DNA of 64,000 nt from a virus: IMG/VR virus record IMGVR_UViG_3300029305_001279; one strand, written 5' to 3'. The notes under the pieces were generated by a model, which worked only from the letters and a program-made list of their open reading frames with translations, had not been told where the DNA came from and did not search any database. This document shows positions 2,349-19,606 of this stretch, one piece after another (within the stretch, counting starts at the first letter, position 1; each line of letters begins with the position of its first letter). The position numbers and the translations under genes were made by a program.

Positions 2349-3992
2349 ATGAAAGTCATCAATGACCGCTGCCCCTTGCAGTCGGAATGTGAGCGGAAGA
2401 AGTGCGAGTTCAAGAACCATGAGCTCGACTGCTCCTACTACCATGCCAACTCCCGGCCCGGTTACGAGATCGCAGACCAGGAAGCGAAGCGCTGGTCCTC
2501 GAACAAGCTGACCTTCGACATGGACGAGGACTGGGACGATGACGAGGATCCGGGCGAAGAGGAAGAGCTGGCACCGAGACCCATCAACGGCCTGATGTGC
2601 AAGCTCCCCATCGATAAGCTGGTCCCCCATCCCGACAACCCCCGGAAGGAACTGGGCGACCTGACCGAGCTGGCCGCATCCATCGAGGCCAAGGGTGTGC
2701 TGCAGAACCTGACCGTCGTGGAAGCAGGCGACGACACCTACCGTATCATCATCGGCCACCGTCGGCACGCTGCTGCCAAGCTGGCAGGACTGACGAAATT
2801 GCCCTGTGTCATCGCCGTCATGACACCCCAGGAGCAGTTCGAGACCATGATGGTAGAGAATGTCCACCGCTCCGATCTGACCACCTACGAGCAGGCAGAA
2901 GGCTTCCAGATGATGCTGGACATGGGCGGCAGCGTTGAGGAGGTCGCCGAAAAGACCGGCTTCTCCGAAACCACCATCCGCCGGAGAGTGAAGCTGCTGG
3001 ATCTGGACAAACAGAAGTTCAAGAAGGCAGAGGAGCGCGGAGCCACCATGGGCGACTACCTGAAGTTGAGCGAGATCCAGGACCCCGAGCGCCGTAACAA
3101 GGTACTGGACACCATCGGAACCGCTAACTTCCACAACAGTCTGAAGGATGCCATTGCGGAAGAAAAATTCCTGGCCCGTATGGAGCGTGTGCGGAACTAC
3201 TTCCGGAACGAGCAGGACTGGTGCCGGGAGAAGACGGATGAAGAGATCGGCTATGGCGAGGGCCAGTATTCCTACCATACCGCCTACGACAAGTTCCATG
3301 CCGAAGATCCCAAGGCCCCGAGCAATGTCGGAAACGTTGATTACATCTGGGCCATCACTGCCCCCAACACCGTCACCATCTACAAGAAGGTCATCAAATC
3401 TGCGGAAAAGGCACCGCTGTCCCCCGAAGGCCAGCGGAAGCAGAAACTCAAGGAAGATCTGGAGGAAATCAAGAACGAGCTGAACCGTATTTCCAAGAAC
3501 CACCGGGAGATGCGTGAAGAGTTCATCCATGACTTCACGGCGGTCCATAACTACGAAATGGATATCCAGGAGTTCGCCGCCATGGCGCTGATCCATCAGT
3601 CAGACGGCTATGTTCACAGAATGGACACAGACCGGCTGGGCAATCTTCTGGGCGTCCAGGTCGACAGCAAGGGCATCATGGACGATGCCGGTATGAAGAA
3701 GGCGCTGTTCAATCGTCCCCAGTACGCACTCCTCTGCACTGCCTATGTGTCTCTGGAAGGCCCCGGCCAGAAGTACAACGACTCCGGCTACTGGATTACG
3801 GATGTCGGCTTCCCTCCCGAGCACAAGAAATCCCCCGCGCTGGATCTGATCTATAAAGGCCTGGAATCCATCGGCTATGAGATGTCCGATGAAGAACTGA
3901 TGATGCAGCGCGGTACCCATCCGCTGTACCAAAAGGCCAAGGAGCTGATCGCTGAGTACAAAAAGGCTCAGGAGGATGCAGGCCATGGCTAA
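2349..3992 (+). CDS. ParB/Srx N-terminal domain protein
   Basis: 547 aa; LPIDKLVPHPDNPRKE...GVLQNLTVV...YRIIIGHRRHAAAKLAGL matches the ParB-like nuclease/CTPase N-domain; Cys-rich first 30 aa and an acidic linker. Confidence 0.8.
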   Translation: MKVINDRCPLQSECERKKCEFKNHELDCSYYHANSRPGYEIADQEAKRWSSNKLTFDMDEDWDDDEDPGEEEELAPRPINGLMCKLPIDKLVPHPDNPRKELGDLTELAASIEAKGVLQNLTVVEAGDDTYRIIIGHRRHAAAKLAGLTKLPCVIAVMTPQEQFETMMVENVHRSDLTTYEQAEGFQMMLDMGGSVEEVAEKTGFSETTIRRRVKLLDLDKQKFKKAEERGATMGDYLKLSEIQDPERRNKVLDTIGTANFHNSLKDAIAEEKFLARMERVRNYFRNEQDWCREKTDEEIGYGEGQYSYHTAYDKFHAEDPKAPSNVGNVDYIWAITAPNTVTIYKKVIKSAEKAPLSPEGQRKQKLKEDLEEIKNELNRISKNHREMREEFIHDFTAVHNYEMDIQEFAAMALIHQSDGYVHRMDTDRLGNLLGVQVDSKGIMDDAGMKKALFNRPQYALLCTAYVSLEGPGQKYNDSGYWITDVGFPPEHKKSPALDLIYKGLESIGYEMSDEELMMQRGTHPLYQKAKELIAEYKKAQEDAGHG

Positions 3993-13986: not shown

Positions 13987-15889
13987 ATGAAATTAGGAAG
14001 CCTTTTTGATGGGTCGGGAGGATTCCCGCTCGCAGGAGAGCTTTGCGGCATAGAGCCGCGCTGGGCGGCTGAGATAGAGCCGTACCCAATCGCCGTTACA
14101 AGGGGGCGTTTCCCCTAACTTGGTACACCTTGGAAGTGTGACCGAGATCAACGGCGCAGAAATAGAAGCAGTAGATGTAATCACCTTTGGATCGCCGTGC
14201 CAGGATCTTTCCGTGGCTGGAAAGCGGGCAGGGCTGAAGCACTCAGCCAACGGCGACGATGAAACCACACGCAGCGGCCTATTCATGGAAGCCGTGCGAA
14301 TCATCAAGGAAATGAGGAAAGCCACAAATGGAAAATATCCGAAGTATGCAATATGGGAAAATGTCATGGGCGCCTTCAGCTCAAATGCCGGCGACGACTT
14401 CCGTGTCGTCCTCGAAGAACTCGTCAAAATCTGCGAACCGGAAGCACCCCCGATACCTTCGCCTGGTAAAGCGGGATGGCCATACGCCGACTGCATCATG
14501 GGAAACGGATTCAGCCTTGCTTACCGTGTTTTCGATGCGCAATACTGGCCCGGCACCCCTCAACGCAGAAAACGTATCTACCTTGTCCTCGATCTTACAG
14601 GCGAATGTGCCGAAAAAATACTATTTGAGCGCGAAGGCTTGCGAGGGCATTCTGAGAAGAGCCGAGCGCCGTGGGAAGGAGCTGCCGGAGATCCTCAAGG
14701 CCGCTCTGGAACAGACGATCCAGAGAGCAGCATAATAGCCATCGATCAACAAGGCGGCAAAGGCAACGCAAATTATGCCGTCGATGTGATGCCTACACTT
14801 TGCAGCGATAGCCATGGCACCCCTCATGCGGTAGCATACGGTGTAACGAGCAAAGGTAATGGAGATAGCTTCATCTCAGAGGAACGGCATACCGCTTTAT
14901 CTACAGGCGGAGGCCAACCGGGGCAGGGATATCCATGTGTGATGCAGCCCATAGCCTTCACCCAGAACCAGAGGGACGAACTGAGAGATCTGGGAGACAA
15001 AGCCGGAACCATACAAGCGGCGCCAGGAACGCATCAGCAGACCTTCATCATCGATAACATCGGAGGTCAAGCGGAATATGGAGTAGAAAGCACCGTAAAC
15101 GGCACCCTTCGAGCTGGTGGGCTGGGCGCTATTTGCTACGATGCCAGAGGAAATGGTGATGGTAAAACCGTCAATACGATCACCGGTGACCACAACAACC
15201 GCATAACAGATTATAGCTCTGTGGTGGTGTATAACGGTGAGAACATCACAAATCCAACGAACAAAGCAAACCCACAACCCGGTGACCCATGCCACACACT
15301 TGGAACCGATAGCAGGAATCACCTCGTATACTGCCTCCAAGGAAACGTCATTGACAGAGCCAATTCTGCCAGATGCAATGGCGAAGGATGGAAAGAGGAT
15401 GTGTGCTACACCCTGAATACCATCGACCGACCGGCTGTATCATACTCAACCGATGTCGGATTCTTTAATACCTGCGAGGATGTGTCCCCGACCATGCTTG
15501 CAAGGATGTACAAAGACCCTCACCTCGTATGCTACGAGGAAGAACCGCAATACATAGTCCGTCGCCTCACCCCTACCGAGTGCGCCAGACTGCAAGGCTT
15601 CCCAGACCGATGGGGAGACATACCACACAAAGAAAACCTCACGGACGAAGAGTACAGCTTCTGGCTGAACGTCCGAAACACCCACGCAGCCATCAACGGC
15701 AGAACTACGAAAGAATACACCAAGGATCAAATCCTCAAATGGTACAATAAACTTCACTCAGACAGTTCCGAATACAAAATGTGGGGCAATGGGATCGCCT
15801 TACCAAATGCCTTGTATGTCATGCAGGGCATAGCGGAGGCAATTAACCATGGTCGAGATCGATACGGAGAAGTGAAACAGAAAGGATAG
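13987..15889 (+). CDS. DNA (cytosine-5) methyltransferase requiring a +1 frameshift at 14113-14118
   Basis: Frame a 13987-14118 gives motif I LFDGSGGF and ends CCC TAA; the +1 frame gives NLVHLGSVTEING..FGSPCQDLS (IV), IWENV (VI), QRRKRIYLV (VIII), a long TRD, RRLTPTECARLQGFPDRW (IX), GNGIALPNA (X). Confidence 0.75.
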
Positions 15890-15898
15890 CAGGACAGC

Positions 15899-16969
15899 AT
15901 GATTAAATTGCTTATTGGCGGTTCCCCATGCACATTCTGGAGCATCGCCCAGAAGAATGGACGGGAAACCGAAGCAGAGGGCATGGGTTGGGAGCTGTTT
16001 AAGAACTACCTCATTGCCAAGGAAAAATTCCAGCCGGACTTTTTCCTTTACGAAAACAACAAATCGGCAGCACAAGCCATCAAGGATCAGATATCACATG
16101 AGCTGGGTGTGGATCTCATGCACATCAATAGTGCGCTGGTATCCGCGCAGAACCGTCAGCGATTCTACGCATTCAACTGGACGGTGGATCAGCCGGAGGA
16201 CCGCGGCATTTCGCTGAACGAAATTCTGGAAGATACACCCGATGAAATAGGCTGCAAAGTTTCCGGAGTCGGATATAGAAACCGCAGAGAGAGCGACGGA
16301 AAGCTGTATAGGCGTTTTGAAACAGACGGCAATCCCAAATCCAACGCTCTGACAACGGTGGACACCGATAGTATGGTTTGCATACCCGCTCACAGCGTCG
16401 CACTCCGCGGACGGGACCACAGATCTGCTTACGAAGTGAGCACCGGCGAAAAAGCGAATGCTCTCACGGGAAGTACCCAGCAACGGCGCATTATAAGACC
16501 TGCTGGAAAATTGCAAGACGGTATCACTTACGAGGTACATAATGGCCTTATTGAAATAAAAGGGAAAGAGTACCCCATCAATTTACCGGACGGCAGCTAT
16601 GTGATGCGGCATCTGACCCCGATAGAGTGCGAACGCCTACAGACGCTCCCTGATGGCTACACCGCCTGTGTGAGCAAAACCCAGCGACGGAAGGCTTTGG
16701 GCAACGGTTGGACGGCGGAGGTGATTATTCACATCCTGAACGGCGCTCTGGCAAACGTTCCTCGGGACGAGGAGATTGTGGTGCTGTCCATGTATGACGG
16801 TATCGCTACCGGTCGGTATTGCTTGGACAAGATGGGCTTCACCAACGTGCGCTATTACGCCTACGAGATCGATAAGTACGCAATGCAAGTCGCATTATCG
16901 AATTACCCGGACATCATCCATTGCGGTGATGCGTTCGATCTGAGAAACCCGGATTGGACAATTAACTAA
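15899..16969 (+). CDS. circularly permuted C5 DNA methyltransferase (motifs IV-X then I-III)
   Basis: 356 aa; N-terminus LLIGGSPCTFWS (IV), FLYENN (VI), SAQNRQRFY (VIII), RHLTPIECERLQTLPDGY (IX), LGNGWTAEV (X), then VLSMYDGIATGRYCL (I), YAYEID (II), HCGDAFDL (III) at the C-terminus. Confidence 0.7.
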   Translation: MIKLLIGGSPCTFWSIAQKNGRETEAEGMGWELFKNYLIAKEKFQPDFFLYENNKSAAQAIKDQISHELGVDLMHINSALVSAQNRQRFYAFNWTVDQPEDRGISLNEILEDTPDEIGCKVSGVGYRNRRESDGKLYRRFETDGNPKSNALTTVDTDSMVCIPAHSVALRGRDHRSAYEVSTGEKANALTGSTQQRRIIRPAGKLQDGITYEVHNGLIEIKGKEYPINLPDGSYVMRHLTPIECERLQTLPDGYTACVSKTQRRKALGNGWTAEVIIHILNGALANVPRDEEIVVLSMYDGIATGRYCLDKMGFTNVRYYAYEIDKYAMQVALSNYPDIIHCGDAFDLRNPDWTIN

Positions 16970-17059: not shown

Positions 17060-17133
17060 GGATCAGCGGGGTGTGGCACCCATCTGCACAAAAGCTGCAG
17101 AAAGAGTCGGTTCGATTCCGGTCTGTTCCACCA
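17060..17133 (+). tRNA. aberrant tRNA-like gene (anticodon loop CAAAAGC, no U33)
   Basis: 74 nt cloverleaf: acceptor ggatcag/ctgttcc (one T-T mismatch), short D arm gggt-gtggc-accc, 6-bp anticodon stem tctgca/tgcaga, T arm gtcgg-TTCGATT-ccggt, encoded CCA; formal anticodon AAA with A33. Confidence 0.5.
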
Positions 17134-17508: not shown

Positions 17509-17585
17509 GCCGCTGTAGCTGCAGCGGTTAGAGCAACTGACTTGTAATCAGTAGGTCGTGGGTTCAAATCCCACCAGCGGCTCCA
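17509..17585 (+). tRNA. tRNA-Thr (UGU)
   Basis: 77 nt; acceptor gccgctg/cagcggc, anticodon arm actga-CTTGTAA-tcagt, T arm gtggg-TTCAAAT-cccac, encoded CCA. Confidence 0.9.
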
Positions 17586-17687: not shown

Positions 17688-17761
17688 GTCGGCGTAGCTC
17701 AATGGTAGAGCACCTGCCTTCCAAGCAGGCAACGCGGGTTCGATTCCCGTCACCGGCTCCA
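17688..17761 (+). tRNA. tRNA-Gly (UCC)
   Basis: 74 nt; D arm gctc-aatggta-gagc, anticodon arm cctgc-CTTCCAA-gcagg, 4-nt variable loop, T arm gcggg-TTCGATT-cccgt, CCA; one C-A mismatch in the acceptor stem. Confidence 0.85.
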
Positions 17762-17854: not shown

Positions 17855-17930
17855 GCTCATGTAACTCAGCTGGTAGAGTAACGGATTTTTAATCCGTGAG
17901 TCGCGGGTTCGATTCCCTCCATGGGCACCA
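17855..17930 (+). tRNA. tRNA-Lys (UUU)
   Basis: 76 nt; acceptor gctcatg/catgggc, D arm actc-agctggta-gagt, anticodon arm acgga-TTTTTAA-tccgt, T loop TTCGATT, CCA. Confidence 0.85.
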
Positions 17931-18022
17931 AAATACGTAACTATACTTTGCATATTTTCCGGCAAAGATGAAAGTTTGAGCATCAAAACAGAAAAATACG
18001 CAAATTGAAAGGGGGCGATGCC

Positions 18023-19606
18023 ATGATTATTCGTCCGCAGCCGAAGCAGGAGGAATTCCTGAGCAATCCGGCAGACATCATCATTTATGGTGGAGCCGCG
18101 GGCGGTGGTTAGCAAGGTAAGACATACGCCCTCCTCTTGGAAGAGTGCCGCAACAGCGACAACCCACGATTCAACTCGGTAATCTTCCGTAGAAATAACA
18201 CACAGATCTTCACGAACGGCGGTCTCTGGGATTCCGGCATGGCTCTGCTCCCTCTGATCGGCGCACAGCCGAAGAAAACCCCGAAACCGTCCTTCATCTT
18301 CCCATCCGGCGCAAAGGTAACATTCGACCACCTGGAACGTTACAGCGACTGCCTCTCTTACCAGGGCTCGCAGATCGTCTTCATCGGCTTTGACGAGCTG
18401 ACCCACTTCGACGAGGATGTCTTCTGGTATATGCTGTCCCGTAACCGTTCGGACTCCGGTATTCCCGGCTATGTCCGAGCTACCACCAACCCTGACCCTG
18501 ACTCATGGGTCCGCACATTCATTGACTGGTGGATTGGCCCTGATGGTCTGGCTATCCCGGAGCGCAGCGGCAAGATCCGCTGGATGATCCGAATCAACGG
18601 CGAGGTGGTCTGGGGCAATTCCCGGATGGAGCTGCTGCAGCGGCAGTTTGATGGTGACATCACCGCCGTGGACAAGAGCCACACATCGACGGATGAACTG
18701 TTCGTTCCGGATCCAAAGGACAGCAAGATCCAGATCATCGTCAAGCCCGGTGTGGAGGGCACACTGTACATAGCTACTCAGACAAAGCAGTTCTTCCAAT
18801 GGTCAGGCGGTGAGTACCGGGAGCTGATGCCCCCGAAGTCCGTGACCTTCATCTGCTCCACATTGCAGGACAATGCCATCCTGATGAAGAATGACCCGAG
18901 CTACCTGGCCAACCTGAAGGCCCTGCCCCTCGTTGAACAGGAGCGGCTGCTGGGCGGCAACTGGAACATCCGTCCTGCTGCTGGCCTTTACTTCCCTCGT
19001 GACAAGGCGAAGCTCATTGACGAGATACCGGATGACCTGGTGCGTGTTGTCCGCGCATGGGACCTTGCAGGCACAGAGGACAAGAAGAACAACAACCCCG
19101 AGGACGGCCCCGCATACACGGCCGGTGTGCTGATCGGCAAGCGCAAGAGCGGAAAGCTGGTTGTCCTCGACGTTATCAATAAGCGGCTCAATGCCAGCGA
19201 TGTGCGAAACCTGGTATTGACCACCGCACGAGCTGACAAGGCAGCATATAAATCCAAATACAGAATCCGCATGAACCAGGATCCCGGCCAGGCCGGTGTG
19301 GATCAGAAGGAACAGTACATAAAGCTGCTGTCCGGCTTCAGCGTCAACATCGAGCGAGAGTCCGGCAGCAAGGAAGTCCGCGCGGAGCCGCTGTCTGCTC
19401 AGTGGATCAACGGCAATGTGGAAGTCCTGAACAGACCATGGACATCAGAGTACCTGGCCCAGCTGGACGGCTTCCCAGACCGGAAGTTCAAGGATATGGC
19501 CGATGCCAGCAACACAGGCTTCCTGGAGCTGGAGAAGTTCAACACCGTATCCGTACCGAAGGACAACAGTGCCCTGGCCAAGCAGAGCTACTGGTTCAAG
19601 AATTAA
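18023..19606 (+). CDS. terL: terminase large subunit with an in-frame TAG in the Walker A loop
   Basis: ATG 18023 behind AGGGGG; MIIRPQPKQEEFLSNPADIIIYGGAAGGG-TAG(18110)-QGKTYALLLE..., same frame as track ORF 18137..19606 (IVFIGFDELTHF Walker B, nuclease C-domain); no other stop. Confidence 0.75.

Follow-up and report, generated by a model that had tools for sequence, protein, structure and literature searches.

An in-frame TAG in the Walker A motif of a gut phage large terminase gene as a candidate site of short translational stop-hopping

The DNA considered here is a window of 64,000 nucleotides (nt), the whole stretch analysed, from the IMG/VR virus record IMGVR_UViG_3300029305_001279. Its large terminase gene (terL) is interrupted within the Walker A motif by an in-frame TAG that lies between two matched GGT codons. 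We consider it probable, from comparison with related genes, that this TAG is a real and selected recoding site in a functional terL, which would be bypassed by a stop-hop from GGT to GGT (+9). On balance we also lean, with somewhat less confidence, towards a wider reading: that natural stop-hopping exists and is common, and that an uncultured clade of gut (Oscillospirales-associated) myovirus-like phages keeps terL interrupted by fast-turning-over cassettes of 1–9 nt, consisting of a stop and a landing codon and located in the first 61 codons, which would be bypassed and selected for a purpose. The hop itself, its efficiency and its purpose are what we infer from these comparisons.

The terL gene lies on the + strand, as do all features described for it here. 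It starts at ATG 18023, downstream of a Shine-Dalgarno-like, G-rich ribosome-binding site (RBS) that can be read directly (AAAGGGGG, 18008–18015). A GGGGG/GGTGATGC motif similar to this RBS is also found 5′ of the terL start in relatives. Coding segment 1 (18023–18109; codons 1–29, MIIRPQPKQEEFLSNPADIIIYGGAAGGG) is homologous to the N-termini of full-length relatives, and its last codon is the proposed take-off codon GGT (18107–18109). The 9-nt insert TAG CAA GGT follows (18110–18118). It opens with the in-frame TAG (18110–18112), which together with the C behind it forms the UAG-C that is proposed as the slow-to-decode A-site codon triggering take-off. TAG and CAA (18113–18115) make up the proposed bypassed gap, and GGT (18116–18118) is the proposed landing codon. 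Coding segment 2 (18119–19606) begins with the resume codon AAG (18119–18121), which encodes the K of GKT, covers what remains of the ATPase together with the RNaseH-like nuclease domain, and ends with TAA (19604–19606). The product matches the Pfam families Terminase_6N (E 1.4e-20) and Terminase_6C (E 1e-10).

An earlier note on this DNA, made from its letters alone, had located the TAG inside the terminase Walker A loop between matched GGT codons. The sequence GGC GGT GGT TAG CAA GGT AAG ACA at 18101–18124, within the Walker A motif, confirms this. Translation likewise bears out its claim that the frame from ATG 18023 continues to 19606 with no further stop: it reads MIIRPQPKQEEFLSNPADIIIYGGAAGGG, the stop and QGKTYALLLEE, with 497 open codons up to the terminal TAA. 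Full-length homologues read ...IIYGGAAGGGKTYALLLEE, without the three extra codons, and spliced threading on the consensus protein shows that excising TAGCAAGGT gives back the exact family consensus. Because full-length homologues lack the 9 nt and their removal restores the consensus, they constitute an insert, and the clean P-loop that the earlier note had obtained by deleting them is the form these homologues have.

Independent support for the TAG, which the earlier note had also asked about, comes from public assemblies. Public data hold 11 contigs with the 455-aa (amino acid) product called downstream of the TAG. We retrieved five of them, each from a different sample in JGI or ENA, and over the 237 nt from the ATG, GGT TAG CAA GGT included, none differs from the window. 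Since five independent assemblies agree in this way, the TAG is not an assembly artefact. A near-identity DNA search of GenBank phages gave no match to the window. In protein mode the best match was an unannotated human-faecal phage with 47.6% identity; all relatives found in this search were at or below that value, and no cultured one belongs to this clade. Relatives embedded in metagenome-assembled genomes point to Faecousia, Ruminococcaceae and other Clostridia as hosts.

A homologue search covering 5.8 billion proteins returned thousands of TerL homologues, roughly 8,000 in all, and the DNA of representatives was taken from IMG/VR, JGI metagenomes, ENA, Logan and GTDB genomes. The scan of JGI metagenomes gave 9 loci only, and most relatives come from ENA/Logan. 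The DNA of each locus (labelled L with a number in the following) was threaded onto the consensus protein by a dynamic-programming aligner that allows skips of 1–15 nt. This alignment of the 9 nt with homologues, which had been proposed as a check, identified them as an insert and also revealed the same 9 nt or similar inserts in many relatives. In the close clade, 19 of the 24 distinct terL N-termini are interrupted. Among the nearest 120 TerL protein clusters, 31 are full length, and in the other 89 the protein starts at the P-loop or beyond it (MAVGAAGGGKT, MAELLAEDSGKT, MEECRN and MALLPLIG are examples of N-termini); these short clusters (89/120) are the calls to be expected of a gene finder when the 5′ part of terL is cut off.

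The inserts are 1–9 nt long and occur at five positions, all within the first 61 codons of terL; beyond codon 61 no interruption was seen in the threaded genes. After L9 (EEFL/S; the slash marks the point of insertion here and below) the forms CTT/TAGCTA, CTT/TAGCTT, CTT/TGACTT and CTT/TAGCTC occur in L001, L024, L008, L013, L055, L066, L015, L056 and L045. After Y18 there are TAT/TAGAAC (L050), TAT/TAGCTAA (L059) and TAT/TGAC (L027), and after G20 (YGG/AA) there are GGT/AGGT (L022, L064), GGC/AGGT (L052, L053) and GGT/TAGGT (L043). At the window's own site, after G24/25 (GGG/KT), the inserts measure 4 nt in L054 (GGA/TAGA), 5 nt in L017 (GGT/TAGGT), 6 nt in L019 and L027 (GGT/TAAGGT and GGT/TAGGGC), 7 nt in L023 (GGA/TAGCGGC), 8 nt in L007 (GGC/TAACTGGT), and the 9-nt form TAG CA[A/C/T] GG[T/C/A] in the window, L024, L013, L055, L062, L063, L065, L066 and L067. 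The fifth position, after L61 (GGL/WDS), is represented by CTT/TAGCTT in L010. Five genes carry two inserts (L013, L024, L055, L066, L027). In L067, a 1-nt insert or +1 slip at TAC GGG AGG (GGG to GGA), about 60 nt into the gene, is needed besides the 9-nt skip at the P-loop. Once inserts are skipped, every relative with a locus that extends as far as the stop codon has an open reading frame (ORF) of 469–528 codons.

In a tree of the C-terminal portion of TerL, insert states form a mosaic. L006 is intact, whereas L010 and L017, which are nearly identical to it, have interruptions at different sites. L022, the nearest relative of the window, has no insert at the P-loop, but carries GGT/AGGT at YGG/AA. 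A rapid turnover of inserts follows from these distributions, whether through gains and losses or through recombination, and still most genomes keep at least one.

The inserts share an architecture that is hardly random. Almost always it has the form of a codon X, a stop or AGG, 0–5 nt and a codon X′. In the close clade, the last codon of the insert is synonymous with the codon preceding the insert in 16 of 18 distinct types (binomial P = 7e-18 against 1/16), and 15 of the 18 start with a stop codon (P = 8e-18); the 18 types are not phylogenetically independent, and by position and length correspond to some 12–15 independent events. All three stops are used, and C follows most of them. Two further types (2/18) start with AGG, the rarest Arg codon in the window (4.3 per 1000). 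AGG takes the place of the stop after the take-off codon in L022, L052, L053 and L064, and the slip in L067 also has AGG in the A site; in the host, AGG thus seems to behave like a "hungry" codon. The landing match persists across length classes and with two different amino acids, and Leu-stop-Leu (CTT TAG/TGA CTN) is found at two separate positions. As a control, in-frame X-stop-X′ cassettes with open frames on both sides were counted in all DNA examined, where 78 of 1251 (6.2%) were found, the chance rate being 1/16; those outside terL are ordinary gene junctions or antisense artefacts. A general enrichment of such cassettes in these genomes was therefore rejected, and because the background equals chance, the cassettes are specific to terL.

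Release factors are slow at UAG followed by C, which is the weakest termination context, as in the UGA C of prfB. A mechanism for the window can be proposed on this basis. GGU at 18107–18109 would be decoded, leaving peptidyl-tRNA-Gly in the P site and UAG-C in the A site. The anticodon of the peptidyl-tRNA would then unpair in some of the ribosomes, the mRNA would slip forward by 9 nt, and the same tRNA-Gly would re-pair with the matching GGU at 18116–18118, so that decoding would resume at AAG ACA (Lys-Thr) and twelve nucleotides would specify one glycine. The predicted product is a full-length TerL of 524 aa with the canonical P-loop YGGAAGGGKT and the junction peptide QEEFLSNPADIIIYGGAAGGGK. 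Ribosomes that do not hop would terminate and release a 29-aa peptide. TerL synthesis would accordingly be throttled, and would depend on the competition of the release factor with hopping.

The window has what such a hop would use: a slow codon directly 3′ of the take-off codon (TAG after GGT) and a cognate landing triplet (GGT to GGT) from which decoding can resume at the next codon (AAG ACA). In the relatives, a jump from the codon that precedes the insert to the matching end triplet reproduces the consensus protein in every case. With inserts of 4, 5, 7 and 8 nt the frame is regained only by skipping, and readthrough cannot repair them. Simple +1 frameshifting fails for L059, since a ribosome in the +1 frame would meet the stop TAA within the gap TAT[TAG C TAA]GGT, and for L054, where the shifted product, GGG-R-KT, would be without GK[ST]. 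Translation of the insert would leave Leu-stop-Leu at two unrelated positions unexplained. No single mechanism other than short translational bypassing fits all inserts. The leading idea of the earlier note, a short hop with Gly take-off, UAG and Gly landing, gains support from the inserts of the same architecture in relatives, including these lengths and the +1-frame stop of L059.

Several observations speak against a stop-hop. The three inserts after Tyr18 (TAGAAC, TAGCTAA, TGAC) have no synonymous landing codon; their landing triplets AAC, TAA and GAC match the take-off codon at two of three positions at most (counting a wobble-compatible third base), and the L059 gap contains stops in two frames. 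These inserts represent either two-out-of-three landings or a different decoding route. Folding revealed no stimulatory mRNA structure around the window's site (z = −0.42 and −1.23), no close Shine-Dalgarno-like element is present at the P-loop site, and a search of the window found no Rfam cis-element. Stop-hops without stimulation are of low efficiency in E. coli, and the host of the window phage would be a member of the Oscillospirales. Two events in one gene (L013, L024, L055, L066, L027) would multiply inefficiencies, and from the genes with two sites it follows that the efficiency of hopping cannot be very low. At Gly-run sites, including that of the window, the matched Gly could reflect a need for Gly before Lys-Thr if the insert is translated. 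Take-off and landing wobble bases do not co-vary (6 of 8 compatible, 6.25 expected), and the gap of the 9-nt class, TAG CA[A/C/T], keeps CA invariant, as a Gln/His codon would.

The last two observations also favour UAG readthrough, a reading that we hold to be unlikely but still worth serious attention. In this case a near-cognate or suppressor tRNA would act at the TAG, and CAA and GGT would be translated, giving GGG-X-Q-GKT with three extra residues and the junction QEEFLSNPADIIIYGGAAGGG-X-QGK. The insert of 9 nt is in frame, the downstream frame is continuous in the same phase, the product would still fit [AG]xxxxGK[ST], and the stop is always TAG in the 9-nt class. Moreover, one relative, L023, encodes a probable tRNA(CUA) (34.3 bits against the Rfam tRNA model). 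However, no suppressor tRNA is found in the window, and relatives have 4, 5, 7 and 8 nt at the same spot, L023 itself among them (7 nt). The middle codon is swapped between Gln and His in L065 and L066, whose downstream protein of 454 aa is identical, which suggests that this codon is little constrained, and intact relatives never have extra residues at the insert position. Readthrough, which the earlier note had listed as an alternative, thus keeps some probability for the in-frame 9-nt site of the window and fails for the 4-, 5-, 7- and 8-nt inserts of its relatives.

A mixture of frameshifting (+1, −1, +2) and readthrough, with whichever event restores the frame adding 1–3 residues beside the P-loop, appears improbable. 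The [AG]xxxxGK[ST] pattern would survive in most such products at the Gly-run sites, L067 needs a classical +1 slip (GGG AGG to GGA), and the window contains three +1 candidates at CCC-stop junctions (see below). Against this, several mechanisms would be required where one suffices, L059 and L054 are not accommodated for the reasons given above, the recurrence of Leu-stop-Leu is left unexplained, and intact relatives show no length variation at these positions.

Inactivation of terL in a decaying or satellite-dependent element, with the TAG truncating the protein to 29 aa, could be suspected from an in-frame stop within an essential motif and from the lack of a cultured relative that would show viability. 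The pattern of substitutions argues strongly otherwise. Among interrupted terL genes, the pairwise ratio of non-synonymous to synonymous divergence (dN/dS) is 0.05–0.12 over the whole gene, and where lineages have the insert in common, values of 0.05–0.12 hold on either side of the stop. Over the 25 aligned codons from P5 (PQPKQ...) to the insert, the pooled ratio of non-synonymous to synonymous differences (pN/pS) among interrupted genes is 0.12. The window and L024, which share the 9-nt insert, differ by dS 0.385 and dN 0.042; in the 25 codons ahead of the stop they show 2 non-synonymous and 8 synonymous differences. The 9-nt class as a whole spans dS up to about 1.5, and terL has hence stayed constrained while interrupted. 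Furthermore, the downstream frame of 497 codons is intact, identical sequences occur in many samples, the architecture of the inserts is non-random (P about 1e-17), and about three quarters of the relatives are interrupted yet conserved. The remaining genes of the window are intact with normal starts: the genome is dense and myovirus-like, with every gene on the + strand and open ORFs for portal, major head, tail sheath and tape-measure proteins. The decaying prophage considered in the earlier note is thus rejected in view of purifying selection, inserts shared by relatives and the assemblies that support the TAG, and we give the pseudogene very little credence.

Equally implausible is internal initiation at TTG 18137 or ATG 18239, which would yield an N-terminally shortened TerL and leave the upstream 29 codons as a separate short ORF. 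Gene callers have made exactly these calls (489 aa and 455 aa), but both starts lie after GKT, so that neither the Walker A motif nor strand beta-1 would be part of the product. Neither start is preceded by an RBS, and an audit of the window's ORFs found no conventional start with RBS near the 5′ end of segment 2. The upstream 25 codons, in turn, are conserved as protein (pN/pS 0.12) and co-linear with full-length homologues. Genome-wide reassignment of TAG to Gln (code 15) can be practically dismissed: such recoding is widespread in gut phages (bioRxiv 10.1101/2021.08.26.457843), the TAG lies in a late gene of a gut phage, and TAG is the rarest genuine stop in the window (5/60), but five window genes end in TAG, a tRNA(CUA) is missing from the window, and ORFs gain next to nothing in length when TAG is recoded. 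In relatives, the same cassettes also occur with TAA and TGA, and some inserts have lengths not divisible by 3. Moreover, global reassignment of TAG, TGA or TAA was rejected since the standard code gives the best, dense and most complete ORF map.

If stop-hopping takes place in terL, two purposes can be envisaged. The inserts might serve as a throttle or sensor on a toxic nuclease/ATPase, in which the balance between hopping and the release factor, or AGG decoding, would keep TerL low and dependent on the state of the cell. The regulatory logic of a throttled terminase has been proposed for the terminase of phiHau3 (PMC10732093). Alternatively, the inserts might be untranslated scars that shield conserved P-loop DNA from homing nucleases. 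The sites at Y18, G20 and G24/25 lie within 21 nt of highly conserved P-loop DNA, and the insert of T4 gene 60 has been linked to protection from a homing endonuclease (PMC5009743).

Homing elements are indeed found in and near terL of relatives. The terL gene of L009 (2678–5233, 851 aa) contains an intein at Walker B (...IPLIC/CEESTL...NKNC/FDELTHF), as does protein P0119, and the L009 intein contains an HNH-like ORF (3237–3902) on the opposite strand; this terL family is thus a target for homing elements. A NUMOD4+HNH_3 gene abuts or overlaps the terL start in L064 (731–1300) and L043 (5578–6120, − strand), and both loci carry an insert at YGG/AA (GGT/AGGT and GGT/TAGGT, respectively). This adjacency may link inserts to nuclease immunity, in the manner suggested for T4 gene 60/mobA, as a lead based on n=2 that is not significant. 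In the window, no nuclease gene lies next to terL.

A tRNA cluster is located directly upstream of terL in the window, with Thr(tgt) at 17509–17585, Gly(tcc) at 17688–17761 and Lys(ttt) at 17855–17930. These match the amino acids decoded at and after the proposed hop (Gly, AAG Lys, ACA Thr). The coincidence may mean nothing, and relatives with and without inserts carry similar clusters. A further ARAGORN call, "tRNA-Phe(aaa)" at 17060–17133, was discarded as a degenerate tRNA-like element (A33; 24.2 bits, below the Rfam cut-off of 29). Apart from this sub-threshold element the window holds only the three tRNAs named, none of them a suppressor or odd tRNA. The probable amber-suppressor tRNA of L023 (87% TerL identity) has the anticodon CTA and lies at 2592–2665, about 270 nt upstream of terL (34.3 bits, E 4.8e-5); the terL insert of this locus, GGA TAG C GGC (7 nt), is not repairable by suppression alone. 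In L003 and L023, "tRNA-???" calls were obtained as well, the anticodon loops of which are abnormal. A pair of neighbouring DNA methyltransferase genes, of 589 aa and 356 aa, lies at 14120–16966 of the window, immediately upstream of the tRNA cluster and terL, and methylases occupy the same place in L022, L052 and L062.

In the audit, RBS-linked conventional starts were found for all ORFs of the window but four, namely terL segment 2 and three ORFs that follow TTC CCC TGA/TAA C. These junctions lie at 14113–14119, 31275–31281 and 32471–32477, and reading in +1 after CCC enters start-less ORFs of 590, 287 and 351 codons, respectively. The first extends a DNA methyltransferase ORF and the second a 956-aa ORF (28410–31280); the ORFs of 287 and 351 codons both join onto DSVEKFNP[YF]HD. 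The three junctions are likely +1 frameshift sites, at which tRNA-Pro would slip from CCC to CCU at the stop. The earlier note had grouped them with the terL site as events that depend on slow termination, which is reasonable, as they are the only other ORF junctions of the window without a conventional start. No hop-like junctions other than terL and these three sites were seen in the window.

Natural bypassing is known from few systems, namely T4 gene 60 with its homologues, the mitochondria of Magnusiomyces and the candidates in phiHau3. If our reading holds, terL of this clade would be the first natural and widespread example of stop-hopping, which has so far been shown with synthetic constructs only. 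Together with the three CCC-stop +1 junctions, it would point to phages or hosts that are unusually permissive for re-pairing of P-site tRNA at stops. Dozens of natural alleles (five positions, 1–9 nt, three stops and AGG) are available in one essential and easily assayed gene, an allelic series that suits the dissection of landing-pairing rules, stop context and limits of gap length. About three quarters of this terminase clade are now mis-called as N-terminally truncated proteins without a Walker A motif, and TerL-based phylogenies and marker-gene surveys are affected by such calls. Should the inserts be regulators or devices of nuclease immunity, they would reveal a new level at which phages in the gut are in conflict with each other or with their hosts.

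With regard to published systems, a 2016 review stated that natural in-frame stop-hops are not known and that a regulatory use of bypassing is still sought (PMC5009743), and a 2024 preprint lists as natural bypassing only gene 60, the phiHau3 terminase candidates and Magnusiomyces. Our full-text literature searches on stop-hops and on interrupted metagenomic terminases found nothing equivalent.

The recoding of stops in gut phages (Borges et al.) resembles the terL case in that in-frame stops occur in late genes such as the terminase, and one relative has a tRNA(CUA). It affects many genes, uses one stop type and relies on suppressor tRNAs, whereas in the terL case a single gene is affected, all three stops are used, insert lengths are in part not divisible by 3, and no suppressor is present in the window. 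In prfB (RF2), where CUU UGA C follows a Shine-Dalgarno-like element, tRNA-Leu likewise sits on CUU in the P site, with C after a poorly recognised stop in the A site; at their L9 site, relatives have AGGAGG 5 nt upstream (CAG GAG GAA TTT CTT TAG C). However, this AGGAGG is ordinary Gln-Glu-Glu coding sequence that is present in intact relatives too, and prfB shifts by +1 onto UUU, whereas the terL cassettes would need +6 onto the second CTN, +1 being out of frame.

The byps of Magnusiomyces capitatus mitochondria are also numerous short untranslated inserts, often with a two-out-of-three match of take-off and landing, and several can occur per gene. They measure 27–55 nt, affect most mitochondrial genes and depend on an unused codon and relaxed mitochondrial translation (PMC5009743), in contrast to 1–9 nt in one gene of a bacterial system.

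T4 gene 60, with which the earlier note had drawn an analogy, is a phage gene with Gly take-off, adjacent UAG and matching Gly landing, and with a possible tie to homing endonucleases. It skips 50 nt at about 40–50% efficiency with the help of a nascent-peptide signal, a take-off stem-loop and a 5′ stem-loop. The window has a gap of 9 nt and no significant structure, and its nascent chain of 29 residues (MIIRPQPKQEEFLSNPADIIIYGGAAGGG) is without a KKYK-type signal. The analogy thus holds for the core of take-off, stop and landing, but not for the 50-nt gap, the stem-loop or the nascent-peptide signal.

Candidate bypassing of 7–10 nt inserts has been described for the large terminase of the Streptomyces phage phiHau3 / StrepC.1 (Smith et al. 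2013; PMC10732093). It is the closest natural parallel to the terL inserts of the window clade, and we liken the two by gene class and by the description of the inserts. In both cases short inserts that are absent from homologues lie in conserved sequence of a large terminase, two sites are possible per gene and a regulatory role has been proposed. The phiHau3 candidates come from an actinophage; there, only 3 of 100 terminase genes are affected and the trigger is the rare sense codon UUA with a limiting tRNA. In the clade of the window, phages of gut Clostridia, the trigger would be a stop or AGG, the inserts lie in the first 61 codons including Walker A, and most relatives are affected. No insert of a relative begins with TTA, the trigger of the phiHau3 type, and that of the window begins with TAG.

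The remaining comparison is with synthetic stop-hops, of +5 and +6, that were obtained in E. coli (Weiss, Dunn, Atkins, Gesteland 1987; reviewed in PMC5009743). Those are engineered reporters of low efficiency, whereas the terL cassettes are natural, conserved, restricted to one essential gene, up to +9 in size and sometimes present twice per gene. The form is otherwise alike: matched codons flank a stop, the peptidyl-tRNA re-pairs a few nt downstream and no elaborate stimulator is involved. CTT TAG CTA/CTT (+6) and GGT TA GGT (+5) in the relatives of the window have this same form.

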